Source: a virus. Taken from it: 64,000 nt of DNA. Shown here in pieces: positions 27,831-55,957 of the stretch; within the stretch, counting starts at the first letter, position 1, and each line of letters starts with the position of its first letter. The stretch is from IMG/VR virus record IMGVR_UViG_3300021185_002414, one strand, 5' to 3'. The notes under the pieces were generated by a model that did not search any database, was not told where the DNA came from, and worked only from the letters and a program-made list of their open reading frames with translations. Position numbers and translations under genes: made by a program.

Positions 27831-27838
27831 TATAAATA
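27831..27838 (+). promoter_or_regulatory. Late promoter TATAAATA for the accessory island (TTGACT lies 16 nt upstream)
   Basis: Exact late consensus; TTGACT at 27809-14 could make it a dual early/late promoter. Confidence 0.7.
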
Positions 27839-27902: not shown

Positions 27903-28862
27903 ATGGAACTACTCACAGTATGGATGCTGGTGGGCTTTTTATTTGCAGCCTATGCAGTTATCGCTAATGATTCTGTTCAAACATTGGGAACATGGATCGC
28001 ATCAAACAACGAAAAATTTCATTGGAGAACAATGTGGACAGCCGCTTCGGCTGTTTTATTATATACACTATGGTATGGGTGGTATATGAACGGAGGCGAT
28101 ATTAGTTATGGTCGTCTAAACAAAATTCCCTTTCAGGAAATACAATGGTACCATGCAACAGCACCTGCATTGCTTTTACTTTTAACAAGAATAGGTGTAC
28201 CAGTAAGTACAAGTTTTCTTGTACTAAGTGCATTTGCAAGCACGTTTGTATTAGAAAAAATGCTACTAAAATCAATGATGGGTTATGCAGTAGCCGCAGT
28301 AGCCGCTTATGCAATATGGATTGTAGTAAGTAAACTATTAGATGAAGCAAAGCCAGTTAAAGAAAAACACAAACGCTGGTGGCGCATTGGACAATGGATA
28401 ACAACAGGGTTGTTGTGGTTTACTTGGTTGTCACACGATATGGCAAATATTGCTGTATTTTTACCACGTCAAATTCCTTGGGATTTAATGGTATTAGTAA
28501 GTTTAATATTTGTTGGCGGACTTTATTTTATGTTTCGCGAAGGTGGAGGCAAAATACAAAATATTGTCATTGAAAAACACAATACAAGATATGTAAGAAG
28601 TGCTACAATAATTGATTTAGTATATTGGTTAATACTTTGGTTCTTTAAAGAGCTAAACGACATTCCAATGTCAACAACATGGGTGTTTGTAGGTTTACTA
28701 TGTGGTAGAGAACTAGCAATGGCAACAATGACAGGCAAGCACAAGTTTAAAACAGTGTTTCCACTTGTTACACGTGACTTCTTTAAAATGATGATTGGAC
28801 TAGCCGCATCAGTTGGCGTAGTATTAATGATTCATTACGTCATAATACCAAACGGATTGTAA
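27903..28862 (+). CDS. Polytopic membrane protein, PiT/PHO4-like anion (phosphate/sulfate) permease
   Basis: About 9-10 hydrophobic segments; inverted-repeat motifs IANDSVQTLG / SHDMANIA and PVSTS / PMSTT like PiT signatures. Confidence 0.6.
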   Translation: MELLTVWMLVGFLFAAYAVIANDSVQTLGTWIASNNEKFHWRTMWTAASAVLLYTLWYGWYMNGGDISYGRLNKIPFQEIQWYHATAPALLLLLTRIGVPVSTSFLVLSAFASTFVLEKMLLKSMMGYAVAAVAAYAIWIVVSKLLDEAKPVKEKHKRWWRIGQWITTGLLWFTWLSHDMANIAVFLPRQIPWDLMVLVSLIFVGGLYFMFREGGGKIQNIVIEKHNTRYVRSATIIDLVYWLILWFFKELNDIPMSTTWVFVGLLCGRELAMATMTGKHKFKTVFPLVTRDFFKMMIGLAASVGVVLMIHYVIIPNGL

Positions 28863-28865
28863 TAG

Positions 28866-29038
28866 GATAAATAAAACTGTAGCACAGAGTTGTGCTACAG
28901 CATCGAAGATGTATCGCACTGGTATAACAGAGCTGTTATATGACTGAGTGCGATTCATTTATTTACCTGATAAGTAATAAATGATTTTTTCAAGATTCAC
29001 ATAAGTGAATTATATTTAAGTCAAATGGAGAATTAATC
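28866..29038 (+). promoter_or_regulatory. Late promoter motif GATAAATA plus multi-stem 5' leader
   Basis: Stems 28877-86/28891-900 (10 bp perfect), 28913-20/28947-54 enclosing 28923-29/28934-40, 28956-66/28974-83, 28995-29000/29005-10. Confidence 0.55.
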
Positions 29039-29740
29039 ATGACAACATCAACACAATTTGTAGCACAACTACAAAAAGATAACGAAGCACTTTTCACAGC
29101 ATCAAAAATGAATGTGAAAGCATATTTTGAGTCAAAAAACAACTCAATGGAAGAGCTAGTAGAGCACTTCACAGGTCGTATGGTAAACGAAAGAATGAAC
29201 ATGGTAGAGATTTCTCGCCAAGTTGCTTCAATGCCAGCAGACGCGGACCCAATTGAACTACAAAACCTATCAAAGCAAGCGCACGATGAGGCAGTTCACT
29301 TCCGTATGGTAAAAGAGTGCATCGAAAAAATCACAGGCGAAACACTAGACGTAGACGCAGCAATCGCAGCAGAGGCCGCAAAGCCACAAGCTAAAGGTGC
29401 TGATCTACTAGAAGCGTACGAAGCATCAAATGATGAAGCAGCTCTAGCTGTATATCAAATCGTTGCTGAAGGACGTGCGGCAGCAGTATGGGCACAAATG
29501 GCAGAATCAATTGAAGACGAATTCATTGCAAAGTCATATGCAAAAATTGCTAAAGACGAGGGTTTCCACTCAACTATTGGTGCAATGAAACTAGAAGCAA
29601 TTGCAACAACACCAGAAGTACAAGCACACGTACTAGACATCGTTGACGGTATGAGAAAAGACCTATACAACGTTTCATGCTTAAACACAGTTAAAGCAGA
29701 AGGTTCAGACGAGCTAGTAAACGAAGCTTACGGTTGGTAA
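29039..29740 (+). CDS. Ferritin-like diiron-carboxylate protein
   Basis: E...DEAVH...E...DEGFH ligand pattern in a four-helix bundle. Confidence 0.8.
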   Translation: MTTSTQFVAQLQKDNEALFTASKMNVKAYFESKNNSMEELVEHFTGRMVNERMNMVEISRQVASMPADADPIELQNLSKQAHDEAVHFRMVKECIEKITGETLDVDAAIAAEAAKPQAKGADLLEAYEASNDEAALAVYQIVAEGRAAAVWAQMAESIEDEFIAKSYAKIAKDEGFHSTIGAMKLEAIATTPEVQAHVLDIVDGMRKDLYNVSCLNTVKAEGSDELVNEAYGW

Positions 29741-29755
29741 GAGAACATATTGTAA

Positions 29756-30313
29756 ATGAATATTGGGTTAACGCAACGCATATTCCATTACAATGATTTT
29801 GCGTATGATTGTTTAGAACATGGTTGGTACAACCTACTAAGCGATCATACGCTTTTTAATATAGCAAACAATCCAGAACAAGATTTTTCTAATATTATCA
29901 AAGATTTAGACATGGTAATCTTTACAGGTGGCGATGCAAGTAGCCCCAGGATAATAACAGAAATAAGACTACTTACTGAGTGTTATAAACAGAAAAAACC
30001 TGTACTAGGAGTTTGCCACGGAGCATTTTTAATTAATCAACTTGAAGAAGGTGTTAATATAGAATGTGAAAATCATTATAAAACGGAACATGAAGTTACA
30101 ATGGATAATAAATCTGTTGTAGTAAACAGCTATCATCAAAATAAAATTTTAAAATTAGCAGAGGGATTTTCGCCTACTGCTATTACAAAAGAAGGTGACA
30201 TTGAAGCATTCAAACATAATATTAATAAAGTATGGGGTATAGTTTGGCATCCTGAGCGAATGGAAAATCCCGTTCTGCCAAACGATCTAGAAAGATTTAT
30301 TAATAACATTTAA
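29756..30313 (+). CDS. Class I glutamine amidotransferase (peptidase C26/PuuD-like)
   Basis: FTGGD, nucleophile elbow GVCHG, VNSYH, WHPE catalytic His-Glu. Confidence 0.9.
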   Translation: MNIGLTQRIFHYNDFAYDCLEHGWYNLLSDHTLFNIANNPEQDFSNIIKDLDMVIFTGGDASSPRIITEIRLLTECYKQKKPVLGVCHGAFLINQLEEGVNIECENHYKTEHEVTMDNKSVVVNSYHQNKILKLAEGFSPTAITKEGDIEAFKHNINKVWGIVWHPERMENPVLPNDLERFINNI

Positions 30314-30334
30314 TTTAAATAATATTAAGATTTA

Positions 30335-30371
30335 GTTAAATAGTAGCATAGGACTTTTAAGTTCTATGCTA
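30335..30371 (+). promoter_or_regulatory. Late promoter motif GTTAAATA plus 11-bp leader hairpin
   Basis: TAAATA at 30337-42; stem 30344-54/30361-71. Confidence 0.5.
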
Positions 30372-30395
30372 TTTCTTTTCATAAGGGAGAATAAA

Positions 30396-31964
30396 ATGAG
30401 TTCAATAGAAGAAAATAATCAAAAAAATGGCTTTAATCAAAAGCGTATAACTAACACACTTTCAAGAAGTAAAGAATTTGAAACTGGACAAGTTAAAAAT
30501 CCAGACATGGTTGCGAATAATACTCCAGCTATGTTTAGTAAAACTTTACAGCATGATGCAACCACATTGCTTCCTGATGCAACAGAAACACAAAAATTAA
30601 AAACAGCAATGGAAAGCGGTTCTAAAGTTGATTTAGAACAAGTTAGCCTTTCCCCTAATGCAACACGTAAACTAGCTAATCCTCTTGGTGCTTTCATTGT
30701 AGAAAGTACAGGACAAGATGCTTACGGTATGACAATGAAAGCATCACCAGCACTTGATAGTGAAGAAGCTGCCGGCGAAATGGTAGAAGTTTGGGAAATG
30801 AATATACAGAGAGATACTTCATTTGATCATCTTAACTTTGGTGCCGCAGATACAGATGCTGATCGTGCAGTAACAAACTTAAATGCGTTTGGTTCTGAAT
30901 ACAAAGGACCTGTAAACGAAAGTAGTAGTACATTAACAAGAGCTGAATTATTCCGTGGCGTGGCGCCTGGTTGTCTTACTGGGCCATATATCTCACAGTT
31001 TTTAATTCATGACTTTCAATTAGGTGCTCATGAGATCGAACAAAAATATAATTACCATACTGGTGTATATGGAATTACAAAAAGTAATTTTAAAGACATT
31101 GCAGACGGAACTGTTCCTGTAGCACAAGCCGCAAATGGTTCTGATCAGTATATATGGAATGGACGTTCACTTGGTACAATTGTACACAGTGATTTTGTTT
31201 ATCAACATTTTTATTATGCAGCATCAATGTTAGCACAAGGTGGCACAAGACACACAGCATTTAGTGATGTAGATCCATCTAATAGCGGTGCATTCTTAAC
31301 ACAAGGTGGGCCAGCATTTGTTGCTCCAGCAGTAGCGGCAGTTTCAGCAAATGCGTTATCAGCGGCATGGGTACAAAAGTGGAGACAACAGTTAAGGCTA
31401 CGACCAGAAACAATGGCTGCACGTGTAGTAACTGGCATTGCAGGAGATAGTCCTGTATATTATGATTCATCATTAACTACAAATGCACAATCAACAATTA
31501 ATGCAGTAAAAGCATTTAACGTAGCAAATGGTGGAGATAATGAACCTTTCTTACCATTATTGTATGCAGAAGGATCACCAACACACCCAGCTTATCCAGC
31601 AGGCCATGCTGTGATCGCAGGTGCATGTGCAACAATACTAAAACTAATGTATGCAGATACAAACTGGTCATCAATGGGTAATTATTCAAGTGTAATGCAT
31701 TCTACAAACGGTACAGCTCGTGTAGCATATACTCGTAGTGACTCTGGAGACTTAACAGTTCATGGAGAACTAAACAAACTAGCGGCAAACATTGCTATTG
31801 GTCGTAATATTGCAGGTGTGCATTATCGTGTAGATGGTGATGAAGGAATGATGTTAGGACAAAAAGTAGCTATACAGTACTTCAAAGATTATATAACACG
31901 TCAAATAGATGCTCGTGGTGATATTACAATTGTTGGATTTGATGGAGTTTCATTCACAGTATAA
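30396..31964 (+). CDS. Vanadium-dependent haloperoxidase (bromoperoxidase type, PAP2 superfamily)
   Basis: Start at ATG 30396 (GGAG RBS), 522 aa. All three vanadate-site motifs present: QKWRQQLRLRPE, EGSPTHPAYPAGHAVIAGAC, GELNKLAANIAIGRNIAGVHY. Confidence 0.88.
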   Translation: MSSIEENNQKNGFNQKRITNTLSRSKEFETGQVKNPDMVANNTPAMFSKTLQHDATTLLPDATETQKLKTAMESGSKVDLEQVSLSPNATRKLANPLGAFIVESTGQDAYGMTMKASPALDSEEAAGEMVEVWEMNIQRDTSFDHLNFGAADTDADRAVTNLNAFGSEYKGPVNESSSTLTRAELFRGVAPGCLTGPYISQFLIHDFQLGAHEIEQKYNYHTGVYGITKSNFKDIADGTVPVAQAANGSDQYIWNGRSLGTIVHSDFVYQHFYYAASMLAQGGTRHTAFSDVDPSNSGAFLTQGGPAFVAPAVAAVSANALSAAWVQKWRQQLRLRPETMAARVVTGIAGDSPVYYDSSLTTNAQSTINAVKAFNVANGGDNEPFLPLLYAEGSPTHPAYPAGHAVIAGACATILKLMYADTNWSSMGNYSSVMHSTNGTARVAYTRSDSGDLTVHGELNKLAANIAIGRNIAGVHYRVDGDEGMMLGQKVAIQYFKDYITRQIDARGDITIVGFDGVSFTV

Positions 31965-32003
31965 AAAAAATTAAAAAAAGGTGAATTAATTTGCCTTTTT
32001 CTC

Positions 32004-32032
32004 TTGACATTTGTGTCTAAAAGTACTATATT
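32004..32032 (+). promoter_or_regulatory. sigma70-type promoter with no protein gene before the next terminator
   Basis: TTGACA-17 nt-TATATT. Confidence 0.8.
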
Positions 32033-32038
32033 ATATAC

Positions 32039-32277
32039 ATAGGTTAGGAGATATCCTAAGTTAGATAGTGCAAGGAATGGCGGTCCGTAGAGGTCGTAAC
32101 TTGGTTCATAGCTGTGGTGGCAATGCAAGAGCGTAGAGATACGAAGTTGTATTTTTAGACGTAACTGTTTAATATGAAGTTCCCTGATTTGAGCGTGGCT
32201 CTACAAAGGGGTTGTTGGTATTCACAGAGTCCAACCTATCACTTTAATAACAGGCTCGCATTATGCGGGCCTTTTTT
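32039..32277 (+). ncRNA. Candidate stand-alone ~200-240 nt non-coding RNA, rod-shaped (6S-like)
   Basis: Predicted TSS 32039 pairs with 32230-39; nested stems 32087-92/32199-204, 32105-10/32173-78, 32135-42/32149-56; own promoter and terminator. Confidence 0.6.
32252..32277 (+). terminator. Intrinsic terminator
   Basis: AGGCTCGCA-TTA-TGCGGGCCT followed by TTTTT. Confidence 0.85.
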
Positions 32278-32347
32278 ATTTATTATATACAACGTAAATT
32301 TTGCTAAATACATATAGAAAAAAAAACTCTTGAAGGATTAGAAAAAA

Positions 32348-32941
32348 ATGGCATCATATATAAAACCTGACGATGGTCGGCTAGTAATTAATAGTACCTT
32401 AAATTTTGCTGATTTAGAAGCTATTGTTGATACAGAATCAGCCTTACTTGTAAAAGGTGGTGCATACATAAACAATGATTTATATATTGGAGGTACACTA
32501 ATTGCAAATGGTGATATTATCACTATTGGTAACACTGGCGGATCTTTAACTTTAAACTCTAATATTTCAAGTGATGTAATTCCAACCACAACAAATAATT
32601 ACAATTTAGGTAGCAATAATAAACAATGGGATAAAATTTACGCTAATAAAATCCTTATGACACAAATTACCTCTAACGCAGGAACAGAAGTGTCTGTAGA
32701 TCATGGAGTTAGCTATATAACAAGCGCAACAAATGTTTCACCTACACTTCCAGATGGAGAATTAGGTCAACTTGTTACGATTGTGGCAACAGAAGCACTT
32801 AACAATCCTGTTACACTTAGCCCTGATAATGGCTTAGGGTATACTACTGTAACTTTTAATAACTTAGGAGATAGTATCTATTTAATGTGGACGCCTAATG
32901 GTTGGGCAATTATATCGCATTTTAGAACAAGTATAACCTAA
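32348..32941 (+). CDS. Putative virion structural protein
   Basis: 197 aa, beta-rich; SSDVIPTTTNNYNLGSNNKQW fibre-type motif; GCTAAATA late motif at 32303-10. Confidence 0.65.
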   Translation: MASYIKPDDGRLVINSTLNFADLEAIVDTESALLVKGGAYINNDLYIGGTLIANGDIITIGNTGGSLTLNSNISSDVIPTTTNNYNLGSNNKQWDKIYANKILMTQITSNAGTEVSVDHGVSYITSATNVSPTLPDGELGQLVTIVATEALNNPVTLSPDNGLGYTTVTFNNLGDSIYLMWTPNGWAIISHFRTSIT

Positions 32942-32952
32942 GGGGACTAAAG

Positions 32953-35900
32953 TTGGCAATTAATATAAACCATAGTATTGGTAAATTAGCTTCTGATGCA
33001 GAGCTAGTTTTAGATGCTGGCACTAACAATAATATAGATGTTTCTGCTAAAATTGTTAAAAATGCACAGGATCCTATAGACCCACAAGACCTCGTCACAA
33101 AAATCTATTTAGAATCTGTAATAGGAGCAGCAACAGGACAAGCAAACCTTTTGCTAGGAACTCCTCCAGATGGATCTTTTGATGATGGGGCATATCAAGA
33201 TTTCAGAGACGACCAAACACTTACAGAAGCAATTGACGATCTTAATGAAGTAATTGAAAATGTAAGAAATAATACATTTGTGAGAAATGTAGATTTCACT
33301 TCAGATATTTTAGTAGGTGGTGCTGGATTAACTTCTACACTTACAATTACATCAGAAGGAAATGCAAATAGATATACTATTGATTGGGGAGACGGATCAG
33401 TAACAAATTCCACTACAGACTCTACCCCTACCCACACCTATGCTGATAATGTAGGTAGTCCTTTTGATGTACACGTGACAGCTTTCAATAATCTTGGTAT
33501 AGGAAGTGGTAGCCAATCAGTAAAATTAAGAGAAAATTATATTACAATCTTTACAGCAGATCCATCAGTAAGTTTTGCTGCATACGACTCTCCAACTGGC
33601 GGCAATGCAATCACTTTTTGGGATGATGGCGATACTGTATACTTTGAAAATACAACTTCAAATACAACCGGCGCTACAATACAATATACATGGACTTGGG
33701 GAGATGGTTCTAGTGACAACGTAATTACAGATGATATTGATGCAGGTGGTGCAGCGGGTGCAAGAATACCGCATACGTTTGCATTAAGTCCAAAACAAGA
33801 AGTATCTAGACAAGTTAGCTTAACATTGGATGTACATAGTACAAGTACTCCTGGACTTATTCCTATTGATGATGATGCAAGTTATAAAATTTATGATACT
33901 CATACTCCAGATACATCTAGTGATATTGTTACTGGTATTAACGAACAGTCAAATAATGGACTAACTGTAACATTTACAAATAATACAGAAAATACAATTG
34001 GTAACCATTCTCAATACGGTATAACGTATAGATGGGATTTTGGAGACGGAACAATACAAACTGTAAATGCAGGCACTAATCAACCTGGCGACACTGGACA
34101 AACAATTACACACAAGTATACTTTGCCAGGAAATAATACAGGAACTGATTTTACAGGAAACTTGCAAGTAATTAGCAATCACACAAATAGTCCATTTACT
34201 AGTAGCAACTTTATAATACATGTTGAACCAGATGTAAGAGCAAACATAAATGGTAGTGCAGATAGCGTGTCAGATCGTAATGGAGATAACCAATATGATA
34301 TATATGATGGTGTTGATTATAATGGGGTAAATCGTGCATTAGCAACAGTTAACAACACAACACAACATGGTGATACATTTGATTGGGATTGGAATGATGG
34401 TAGTGTAAATGATACAACAACAGATTTAAGTAGTGTGTCGCATGATTTCACAGGTGTTGGAGCAGGTAATTATCAACTTGTTATGACTGCAACTGGCACT
34501 CCAGACATTACACAGCAAACAGACACAGATAATTTAACATTTGAAGTAAGAGCTGTACCTGTTGCTCCTACTGGTTTAAGCACAAAAAATATAACACTAA
34601 CTGATCCTCATCAAGGTATAAATCCAAAATTAACATCTGGGTTTACAGATAATAGTGATACTAGTCCATTAAGTGCAGGCGATAGCCTAGAAACAAATAC
34701 TGCAAGACGTTATACTAACGGTACATTAGATACAAGTATAGCTCAAAATGCATACAATGGGTTAAGCGGAACAGTAACAGCAATAGTAAATGGTGTAGCT
34801 GATGGTAGTCAATCATTTACAACAGCATTAAGCGAAAATGGCACATTTGATAGTCTTGTAATTACAGATCAGAGAGATGCAAATGATAGTATCAGTAGTA
34901 GTACGTATCCTACAGGTTTCTATCAAACATTTGACTCTAAAATTACAAAGCCATTTAGTGAATACCCAACTGGTGTTAATGACCAGCGTATAGAACACAG
35001 TGAAACAGGTAATACAAACTATGTAACAGTAGTATGTGATGATCTAACAAATGTACCAGATAATGATATAACAGGTGCATCTATTGTAGAAAATAATGCA
35101 GGAAATTATAGATATATATCAGGTATTCCTTATTATAACTCAGGTAGTCCTAGTTTAACACTTAGCGGTGTAAGTGTAAGTAATTGGATAGGACAAGCAT
35201 ATAGAGATACAAACAATGTATTTGAAATTAGCAATGGTAACAATTTAGAAGGTACTTCTGGAGCAACAATTAGTACGCAATATAAAACTTATACTGATCT
35301 AGAAGACGTGGCTTATTTGACTAATGGCATCCCTAATACAAATACATTAAATTATACATTTGCTGATCAAACTATTGATATAACAAATTCCAATATAGCG
35401 GCTGTAGAAACTCTTAAAGTTAGAACGTTTAATGTAAATGGAACAGGAAACTATAAAGAACTTCAAGAAAAAATACAAGTACATACTTCTAATCCTTTTG
35501 GTATTATAGAAAATAGTATACCTGTAGATGATAGTTTGGGAGATGGAAGTTTAACAAATGATGCATTTAGAATAGCAGACTTTATAAATGCTACTAGCAG
35601 TACTCCTAGTTTTGTTGGTAGTACTGATTTTACACAAAATCCATTTACTGGTGCAATTGCAGTTGCAGGCACAAATGAGGCCACTGTGCGATGGGGAACA
35701 CTTTCGCATGATACAACAGATTATAGCACAGGATATCTACCAGTTGGTCCTGACAGAAGTTCAGATACTGGTACACAATATTTTACATTTGCATTCCAAA
35801 GAAAAGTTGCAGCTAACTTTGGAATACAAATCGCATCTAACGGAATTAGTGGGATGTGGATTGCGGCACCTGGAACACAAATAGACAGCTCTAGTGGTTT

Positions 35901-54988: not shown

Positions 54989-55957
54989 ATGTTTAGATTT
55001 TTTAAGAACCGAGATTGGTGGTTATGGAGTTGGCTAGGGTCAGCTCTCATTTTAGGATCACTATGGGTTCAAGTTGAAATTGATGTAAAAATCAATGAAT
55101 GGTTTGGCCAGTTTTATGATATGATTCAAAAAGCATTAGCCTCACCTAATGCAATTACTATGACTGAATATTGGAGTAGTTTAATTGACTTTATTTACTT
55201 GGCAAGTATCTATGTTGCTATTGCAGTAGTAGTAAGTTACTTTACTGCTCATTACCTATTCCGTTGGAGAACAGCAATGGTAGAATGGTATCATAGTGTA
55301 TATGACAAAGCACGTACAATAGAAGGTGCAGCGCAACGTGTACAAGAAGACACCATCAAATTTAGTAGAATTATGGAAGGTCTAGGAACTAGTTTTATAG
55401 AAGCTATTATGATACTTGTACAGTTTGTTCCAATTCTACTAGGACTTAGTACAGGACTTACAATTTTCTTTTTTGGGGATTGGCAATATGGTCTTGTTAC
55501 AGGTGCTCTTGTGTGGAGTATTGGTGGAACATTATTTTTAGTTGGACTAGGTTGGCTTCTTAGATTAGTAGGTGTTGAATATGACTTACAGAAAAAAGAA
55601 GCAGCATATCGTAAGATACTTGTTATTGCAGAAGACGATAATACTATACGTCCTAAATCTATTGATGAATTATTTTTAGATGTACGTAGTATACATTTTA
55701 AAAGTTATATTCGTTATCTATACTTTAATATCGGACGTATTGCATATTTACAAGCAAATGTGTTAAGTGCTTATGTATTCTTAGCACCAGCAATTGTAAC
55801 AGGTGCAATTACACTAGGTGTAATGCAACAGATTATTAGAGCATTTGGTAGAGTTGAAGGTTCAATGCAATATATACTTAAAGCATGGCCTACTATTATT
55901 GAACTAGCAAGTGTATATAAACGTCTACGAGAGTTTGAGCGTCAGATAGAAAAATAA
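54989..55957 (+). CDS. sbmA: SbmA/BacA-family inner-membrane peptide transporter
   Basis: IEGAAQRVQEDTIKF...GTSFIEAIMILVQFVPIL and EAAYRK...AED closely follow the SbmA/BacA pattern; no fused ATPase. Confidence 0.85.
   Translation: MFRFFKNRDWWLWSWLGSALILGSLWVQVEIDVKINEWFGQFYDMIQKALASPNAITMTEYWSSLIDFIYLASIYVAIAVVVSYFTAHYLFRWRTAMVEWYHSVYDKARTIEGAAQRVQEDTIKFSRIMEGLGTSFIEAIMILVQFVPILLGLSTGLTIFFFGDWQYGLVTGALVWSIGGTLFLVGLGWLLRLVGVEYDLQKKEAAYRKILVIAEDDNTIRPKSIDELFLDVRSIHFKSYIRYLYFNIGRIAYLQANVLSAYVFLAPAIVTGAITLGVMQQIIRAFGRVEGSMQYILKAWPTIIELASVYKRLREFERQIEK

Follow-up and report, generated by a model that had tools for sequence, protein, structure and literature searches.

The stretch of DNA analysed here (the window) comprises 64,000 nucleotides of the IMG/VR virus record IMGVR_UViG_3300021185_002414 and contains, on the plus strand at 30396..31964, an uninterrupted reading frame for a protein of 522 amino acids (P0001) that is homologous to vanadium-dependent haloperoxidases (VHPO) of the vanadium bromoperoxidase (VBPO) type and has no export signal. 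A sequence-only reading had described it as an intact, phage-encoded VHPO, and open reading frame call and translation confirm the extent of the frame, which has no internal stop codon. The frame opens already at an ATG at 30366; we chose the ATG at 30396 as the better start, because a Shine-Dalgarno sequence read from the letters (GGGAG, 30385..30389, plus strand) lies 6 nucleotides before it, because ATG 30366 sits within a 14-bp hairpin (30342-30373) found in a scan for terminator-like structures and because identical or near-identical metagenome proteins are 522 amino acids long.

Its gene content identifies the window as the structural module of a jumbo myophage of T4-like type: it encodes baseplate wedge and hub proteins, an SbcC-like nuclease, portal, prohead protease, major head protein, a gp15-like protein, sheath and fibre. 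The capsid protein is 67-71% identical to the capsid proteins of jumbo phages of 280-470 kb (Pseudomonas phage PA5oct, Cronobacter phage GAP32, Pectobacterium phage CBB, a Vibrio phage and a Sinorhizobium phage). Tblastn found no copy of the enzyme in any of those jumbo phages and no match to the phage VHPO in 50,697 phage records, and searches of PHROGs and NCBIfam matched no family, including no structural PHROG family; thus, the protein has no relative in a cultured phage and no ready annotation. This agrees with the earlier statement that no characterised phage example is known: a fold search of BFVD likewise returned no phage protein and full-text literature searches yielded no report of a vanadium haloperoxidase encoded by a virus. 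There are no tRNA genes in the window and hence no hint to the host.

The same gene with its flanks is present in independent assemblies, with VHPO identities of 94% in L011, 85% in L114 and 71% in L095/L096 (L numbers denote the loci of relatives). At least 14 DNA runs from seawater or other marine samples, which belong to different studies, contain at least 93% of the sampled words of the region 29000-33000, the region is also found in six metatranscriptome runs, and a DNA contig from another run spans the junction between the VHPO gene and the amidotransferase gene that precedes it (29344-31330). The carrier of the VHPO is an abundant marine jumbo phage. The junctions between gene and phage are found repeatedly, across independent assemblies as well as numerous seawater runs, and the segment is therefore not a host chimera, a possibility that the sequence-only reading had raised against itself and that is contradicted by the junctions in L011, L095, L114 and the DNA contigs of other runs. 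Together with the structural genes and the jumbo-phage-like capsid, these junctions bear out that the enzyme is phage-encoded.

Relationship to vanadium bromoperoxidases

When all PDB chains were searched by phmmer, residues 30-495 of the phage VHPO matched VBPO-I of Ascophyllum nodosum (1QI9) with an E-value of 2e-46, which places the homology far beyond chance. The VBPOs of Corallina, A. nodosum (II) and Acaryochloris followed with E-values of 1e-43 to about 4e-40, and the first match that is not a VBPO, the iodoperoxidase of Zobellia, had an E-value of 0.4. A profile built from 25 relatives matched only VBPO entries strongly (1.8e-80 to 2e-64), the best being those of Corallina and Acaryochloris marina (1QHB, 1UP8, 8VH0, 5LPC; 1.8e-80 to 2.5e-75); the vanadium iodoperoxidase (VIPO) of Zobellia followed at 7.5e-4 and the vanadium chloroperoxidase (VCPO) of Curvularia at about 1. 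Neither the phmmer nor the profile search of the PDB returned an acid phosphatase.

The AlphaFold2 model of the phage VHPO (pLDDT 88.5, pTM 0.92) aligns to 1QI9 with Foldseek TM scores of 0.86/0.81 at 26% identity, and the top 12 matches in the PDB are all VBPO chains (TMq 0.82-0.87). VCPO, VIPO and NapH (NapH1/NapH3) score 0.16-0.27, and the acid phosphatases of E. blattae and P. aeruginosa, PhoC and PhoN score 0.11-0.18. Model and profile agree on the full-length two-bundle fold of 1QI9, 1QHB and 5LPC, apart from the VCPO/VIPO/NapH type. Folding of two copies gave a score of 0.87 compared with 0.00 for the best of three controls, a value that may reflect memory of solved VBPO dimers; the mark applied to this score is reached by 21 of 30 proteins solved as same-chain pairs and by none of 23 solved as single chains. 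The predicted interface takes in W325 and H397, and the phage VHPO is probably a soluble homodimer. It would share this with A. nodosum VBPO-I, the interface being predicted to reach the entrance of the active site; enzymes of the VBPO subtype are homo-oligomers assembled from dimers.

The motif coordinates given by the sequence-only reading proved exact when recomputed from P0001, and GELNKLAANIAIGRN, to which it had also pointed, is present. Residues were assigned by alignment to 1QI9 and by A1, an alignment of the phage VHPO and its relatives with 25 diverged sequences and identities down to 45%. Motif 1 (31368..31406, plus strand) is invariant in A1 and contains W325, K328 (31377) and R336-P337 (31401), equivalent to W338, K341 and R349 of A. 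nodosum VBPO-I, with the same K-x7-RP spacing. Motif 2, HPAYPAGH (H397 to H404; 31584..31607, plus strand), contains the extra His typical of VBPOs (H397 = H411), A402 in place of S416, G403 (= G417) and the catalytic H404 (= H418). Motif 3 (31803..31835, plus strand) contains R470 (31803; = R480), the vanadate-bonded His H476 (31821-31823; = H486) and D480. W325, K328, R336, H397, G403, H404, R470 and H476 are invariant in A1 and D480 is nearly so.

These residues can be compared with the roles described for VHPOs, namely the vanadate ligands, the catalytic His and, in C. inaequalis, Ser402, which hydrogen-bonds to an equatorial vanadate oxygen (PMC9144378). The vanadate-bonding His within R-x5-H (H496 in C. 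inaequalis, H486 in A. nodosum) is found as H476 with R470, the Lys and Arg of motif 1 that provide hydrogen bonds to vanadate as K328 and R336, and the acid-base His of S-G-H as H404, preceded by G403. The Ser of S-G-H is absent, its place being taken by Ala402. Described for the VBPO subtype are a His that replaces Phe397 of the chloroperoxidase and the position three before the Lys, which tunes chloride use (PMC9144378, PMC11871015); the phage VHPO has H397 before P-x-Y and W325, from the Trp/Arg pair expected, three before K328. Sequence, profile, predicted fold and conserved active-site set thus support the assignment of the phage VHPO to the algal/cyanobacterial VBPO structural type, as the sequence-only reading had proposed.

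The closest counterpart of known structure, A. nodosum VBPO-I, has the same full-length fold and K-x7-RP spacing as the phage VHPO; its two Arg, its catalytic His and the His bonded to vanadate are also common to both, as are the additional His that precedes P-x-Y and a pocket Trp at the third position before the Lys. It differs in that it has Ser416 where the phage protein has Ala402, is 556 rather than 522 amino acids long and comes from a brown alga rather than a phage. The VBPOs of Corallina and Acaryochloris have the C-terminal catalytic half and the fold in common with it (TMq 0.82-0.87), but they are 596-666 amino acids long, form dodecamers, carry SGH and have Arg rather than Trp three before the Lys (PMC11871015).

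The three solved VBPOs whose alignments to the phage VHPO were inspected have SGH. Among the 146 nearest representatives of 50%-identity clusters, drawn from a library of 1.84 billion proteins, 101 have AGH, 30 SGH, two GGH and one TGH. Ala402 is thus not peculiar to the phage, as Ala is the majority state in the nearest bacterial and viral representatives; judged by these sequences, Ala is the usual state of an uncharacterised bacterial and viral branch in which Ser and Ala interchange. Ser-to-Ala mutants of VCPO and VIPO stay active; literature searches for this exchange returned nothing.

VHPOs and PAP2 acid phosphatases share their active site and apo-VHPOs dephosphorylate (PMC9144378; 3BB0 is among the structures listed). 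The phage protein could be a phosphatase or phosphoryl-transfer enzyme that uses the same site without vanadium for PAP2 chemistry and feeds phosphate to the phage, perhaps together with a PiT-like permease: it matches Pfam PAP2 weakly, JGI names some of its relatives 'phospholipid phosphatase', and a gene resembling phosphate/sulfate permeases lies directly upstream of the VHPO in L095/L096 and nearby in the window. However, we regard this as unlikely. PAP2 acid phosphatases have about 200-250 amino acids, a single bundle, K-x6-RP, PSGH and SR-x5-H-x3-D, and the phage protein, with 522 amino acids, K-x7-RP, PAGH and both helical bundles, has the size and spacing of a VBPO; PDB sequence and profile searches returned no acid phosphatase and the fold scores to these enzymes are 0.11-0.18. 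Furthermore, the Trp and His of the halide pocket are invariant, although a phosphatase would not need them, the closest relative (L011) has no permease, and a cytoplasmic enzyme could not scavenge external organic phosphate.

A viral clade without export signal

A protein search for relatives of the phage VHPO, of the kind suggested by the sequence-only reading, gave 1568 matches. Twelve clusters among them have identities of 71-100%, and many further proteins, about 510 amino acids long, reach 45-56%; every genomic context that was opened is phage-like. A VHPO of 74% identity lies on L002, a Tara scaffold of 240 kb that also encodes ClpX, IF3, S21 and radical-SAM proteins. Other relatives are found with terminase and topoisomerase II, with endonuclease VII and GlnRS, with T4 gp13, or with a T4-type DNA polymerase and GroEL, and one, 45% identical, is on a 112-kb virus-like contig of small unknown genes (L118). 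On L002 (4706-5513), IF3, ribosomal protein S21, ClpX, ClpS, HSP20 and several radical-SAM/SPASM proteins are encoded within 10 kb of the VHPO. On L118 (12448-13129), two short adjoining genes match release factor domains (PCRF, weakly, and RF-1) and could be a split or partial release factor.

The best bacterial or archaeal match, among one genome each of 185,579 species, is 40% identical, and the nearest cellular relatives (35-40%) belong to Verrucomicrobiota, Acidobacteriota, Gamma- and Alphaproteobacteria. A tree of 82 rows was built by a quick maximum-likelihood method, with no root inferred, a bacterial sample drawn with a pattern biased towards AGH, and the characterised algal, cyanobacterial, Zobellia and Streptomyces enzymes left out. 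In this tree, the 40 viral or metagenome rows of the set all fall into one group (SH-aLRT 100, stem 0.53) that adjoins four Verrucomicrobiota sequences (support 98), and two giant-virus sequences have long branches that leave the tree either outside the phage group or at its base. The bacterial VBPO-like proteins share PTHP[AS]YPAGH, with Ala, but are 550-580 amino acids long, fall outside the viral clade and are mostly exported by the twin-arginine (Tat) pathway. Their genes stand alone: no conserved neighbour was found across 80 bacterial loci, and the only recurring 'clusters' consist of frames that overlap within the haloperoxidase gene.

Of these 80 bacterial loci, 58 encode a twin-arginine motif with a hydrophobic stretch behind it, but none of 121 viral-clade proteins and none of 21 viral contigs has one. 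The strongest 15-residue hydropathy within the first 80 amino acids is 0.18 for the phage VHPO versus a median of 1.49 for its bacterial relatives, which confirms that it has no signal peptide, as had been read from the sequence alone; no conserved N-terminal targeting sequence was seen either, the first residues being variable in A1. Since no viral copy has an export signal, the viral VHPOs would be made in the cytoplasm and reach the outside only by lysis or on a particle. Tree and signal counts together show that the phage lineage acquired its VHPO from a bacterial branch in which most enzymes are exported by Tat.

The VBPO-type fold is also present in giant viruses: the fold search of BFVD matched proteins of Sylvanvirus, Hokovirus HKV1 and Yasminevirus (TMq 0.76-0.89, E-values 7e-33 to 8e-23). 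These proteins differ from the phage VHPO in being only 21-29% identical, in belonging to viruses of eukaryotes and in having no haloperoxidase annotation. Giant-virus proteins with this fold and HP-x-[YF]-P-A-G-H (L108, L109 and L111 from IMG/VR GVMAGs; A0A3G5AI90, A0A1V0SGK0 and A0A5K0U6L7 in BFVD) are annotated merely as 'PAP2 superfamily' or as uncharacterised.

Within the phage group, dN/dS of the VHPO is 0.10 compared with L011 and 0.13-0.19 compared with three relatives that are 73-75% identical, indicating that the gene is under purifying selection. In the comparison with L011 (10001-11566), the VHPO has a dS of 0.30, which exceeds the values of the genes around it by a factor of 3-12 (0.024 for the capsid gene, 0.061 for the diiron protein, 0.114 for the amidotransferase and 0.077 for the next gene). 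The difference between 0.30 and the 0.02-0.11 of these four neighbours speaks for an exchange of VHPO alleles among phages and suggests allele replacement by recombination among phages that co-occur. The position of the gene varies too: it follows the capsid gene and precedes the fibre genes in the window, L011, L095 and L114, follows a gp13-like neck gene in L117, lies beside fibre-like genes in L101 and L102, and is found among metabolic or replication genes in L002, L005 and L009.

The metagenomic source and the elevated dS to L011 could also be taken as signs of an assembly chimera or of a decaying passenger recently captured from the host. We consider this hardly credible, given the identical junctions in L011, L095, L114 and DNA contigs of other runs, the deep viral clade with a best bacterial identity of 40%, and a frame with no stop codons and dN/dS of 0.10-0.19; the high dS fits allele exchange between phages rather than decay.

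Neighbouring genes and transcription

Three genes on the plus strand lie between the capsid gene and the VHPO gene. The first (27903..28862) encodes a PiT/PHO4-like membrane protein of 319 amino acids, a 'phosphate/sulfate permease' (viral clusters of the atlas, score 0.99; Pfam PHO4 only at an E-value of 0.02), the second (29039..29740) a ferritin-like diiron protein of 233 amino acids (viral ferritin-like/RNR-like clusters of the atlas, score 0.96; weak match to Pfam DUF455, E-value 0.011) and the third (29756..30313) a class-I glutamine amidotransferase/peptidase C26 of 185 amino acids (PF07722, 1.4e-17; PF00117, 1.5e-11), which reaches 88.8 bits with the NCBIfam model of gamma-glutamyl-CDP-amidate hydrolase, under the cut-off of 250. 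The order permease, diiron protein, amidotransferase and VHPO is the same in L114. The permease is also present in L095/L096, which have neither the diiron nor the amidotransferase gene, and is absent from L011; L002, L093, L094, L005, L009 and L117 have the VHPO at other sites, with none of the three. As their presence varies between relatives, the three genes are not obligate partners, and the VHPO is the constant element. The permease gene itself (27903-28862 in the window, 4923-5870 in L095) behaves as a presence/absence cassette and carries a TATAAATA of its own: the window and L095 copies share 94% identity, compared with only 71% for the adjacent VHPO genes, and in L011, which lacks the permease, its two flanking hairpins abut.

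The depth of DNA run X1 is flat across the whole stretch at 72-90, except for a few bins of up to about 200 that are attributed to co-assembled related strains. In the RNA runs X15, X16 and X17, depth is 250-2800 for the capsid gene and 155-723 for the diiron and amidotransferase genes, but 20, 90 and 15, respectively, for the VHPO gene, similar to the fibre genes (19, about 105 and 14). All three RNA assemblies stop at 30141/30236 and resume at 30361/30385, leaving 30237-30360 uncovered where the DNA contig is continuous, and on one RNA contig (X16) the sequencing adapter is joined directly at 30385. The break and an 8-10-fold drop in depth coincide with the 14-bp hairpin, which is followed by a T-rich tail (30342..30373, plus strand) and lies between the amidotransferase stop and the VHPO start. 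There appears to be termination or processing at this hairpin, followed by a separate, weaker VHPO transcript. The diiron and amidotransferase genes are on one RNA contig (27868-30235, X16) at about 10 times the depth of the VHPO, nearing that of the capsid gene, and on one RNA contig an adapter is joined at 28903, just after a hairpin at 28876-28901.

The post-capsid block is headed by TATAAATA, the T4-type late-promoter motif (27831..27838, plus strand). The window has six copies of TATAAATA, five of them directly upstream of gene starts, but the motif is not enriched in the window (6 versus 10.6 expected by chance); its positions are suggestive of late timing of the block, without being proof. 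Downstream, the first hairpin with T-run that resembles an intrinsic terminator after the VHPO stop is at 32252..32272 (plus strand) and may instead end a small transcript from a promoter-like site at 32004-32032.

The four genes could form one pathway, in which the permease brings in vanadate or another oxyanion, the diiron protein and the amidotransferase produce or activate a substrate or peroxide, and the VHPO halogenates it. The repeated gene order in L114, with its 85% identical VHPO, and the T4-late-like TATAAATA at the head of the block are in line with this, but the block is a mosaic (no permease in L011, no diiron and amidotransferase genes in L095/L096, none of the three at six loci), the VHPO appears to have its own transcript, roughly 10 times less abundant than that of the diiron and amidotransferase genes, and the 80 bacterial loci have no conserved neighbour, so that such a pathway seems quite improbable to us. 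As an obligate halogenation system, the four-gene block was rejected on the mosaic synteny and the separate VHPO transcript.

Putative activity and role

On the grounds of its family, we think it likely that the phage VHPO carries out genuine halide oxidation. Vanadate would be bonded to His476 and receive hydrogen bonds from Lys328, Arg336, the backbone of Gly403 and Arg470, with Ala402 accounting for one hydrogen bond fewer; in its branch, Ala would be the ancestral state rather than a novelty of the phage. H2O2 would convert it to peroxovanadate, with His404 as acid-base residue, and bromide or iodide would attack the peroxovanadate in the pocket of Trp325 and His397, giving HOBr or HOI. 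These may halogenate nearby nucleophiles, or react with a second H2O2 to O2 and halide, a halide-dependent catalase cycle.

Several observations weigh against this reading. Every characterised VHPO that we inspected has the Ser that hydrogen-bonds to vanadate and the phage has Ala; the Pfam PAP2 match has 21.3 bits, under the gathering score of 27.2; and the VHPO-specific PF22778 (VCPO_2nd) is known only from the precomputed annotation of an identical protein. Members of the VHPO family without halogenating activity exist (NapH3). The RNA evidence consists of assembler contig depths and is unstranded: the VHPO depth equals that of the downstream fibre genes, which DNA carry-over would also give, and RNA as the source is favoured solely by the gap in coverage and by the adapter joined at 30385. 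Finally, vanadate(V) and H2O2 are scarce in the cytoplasm, and an enzyme with no signal may thus be poorly loaded before lysis.

The VHPO would be made in the cytoplasm alongside the late structural genes and most likely act inside the cell at a late stage of infection and, in particular, after lysis has brought it into contact with the bromide, vanadate and H2O2 of seawater. Seawater supplies bromide and vanadate; as in addition the bacterial relatives are exported and the viral copies have no signal, action at and after lysis is the most economical assumption. We infer that its role may be the removal of peroxide, the release of reactive halogen around the burst, or both; peroxide removal inside the late cell would be an alternative benefit.

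The enzyme could also be part of the virion, packaged or placed near the fibres, its hypohalous acid breaking down capsule or slime at the host surface or protecting the particles. Its position inside the structural module in the window, L011, L095, L114 and L117 and beside fibre-like genes in L101 and L102 is compatible with such a role, as are the missing export signal and an RNA depth like that of the fibre genes. However, in other relatives the gene lies among non-structural genes (IMPDH, terminase/guanylate kinase, GlnRS), the protein matches no structural PHROG family and its first residues vary in A1; we thus give a virion enzyme little chance.

Biological formation of bromoform and other volatile halocarbons in the sea is attributed mainly to vanadium haloperoxidases, enzymes that have been assigned to seaweeds, diatoms, cyanobacteria and some few bacteria. 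While the enzyme family and its chemistry are known, the large viral clade with no signal and its apparent expression in the sea are new. The copies of this deep phage clade look catalytically intact, are found across numerous metagenome runs of seawater and are apparently transcribed; if active, they would add virus-infected cells and lysates to the sources of reactive halogen. It is a tentative and rather doubtful proposal that reactive bromine and iodine have an enzymatic source, so far overlooked, in marine jumbo phages and some giant viruses, whose VHPOs without signal, released by lysis or borne on particles, would use the bromide, vanadate and H2O2 of seawater; if true, HOBr and HOI would halogenate dissolved organic matter, form volatile bromocarbons, or harm competitors, grazers or host envelopes, and viral lysis would be tied directly to the halogen cycle of the ocean. 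The enzyme may also bear on halogenated metabolites that are reported from virus-infected blooms, with the halogenases unknown (PMC12891027).

Enzymologists find in the clade hundreds of compact natural variants lacking a signal, with Ala or Ser at the position that contacts vanadate; for phage biology, it is an accessory gene of a new chemical type that has been kept while moving between slots of the structural module. The sole characterised viral halogenase that we found cited is VirX1, a flavin-dependent cyanophage enzyme (Gkotsi et al. 2019, cited in PMC11312541). It is likewise virus-encoded and derived from the sea, but has an unrelated fold and uses FAD and O2 for halogenation of bound substrates, unlike the phage VHPO, which would use vanadate and H2O2 to give diffusible hypohalite.

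Two further features of the window may be mentioned. The 383-nucleotide gap after the VHPO gene holds an 11-of-12 match to a sigma-70-like promoter (32004-32032) and a strong terminator (32252-32272). Between 32004 and 32277, RNA depth in X15 rises to 77 from about 20; this bump may come from strain mixtures, because the DNA run has one too (164 versus about 80). Among the tail genes of this lytic-looking jumbo phage lies a full-length gene for an SbmA/BacA-like inner-membrane transporter (54989-55957, plus strand; PF05992, E-value 3.7e-138, profile positions 1-315 of 315).

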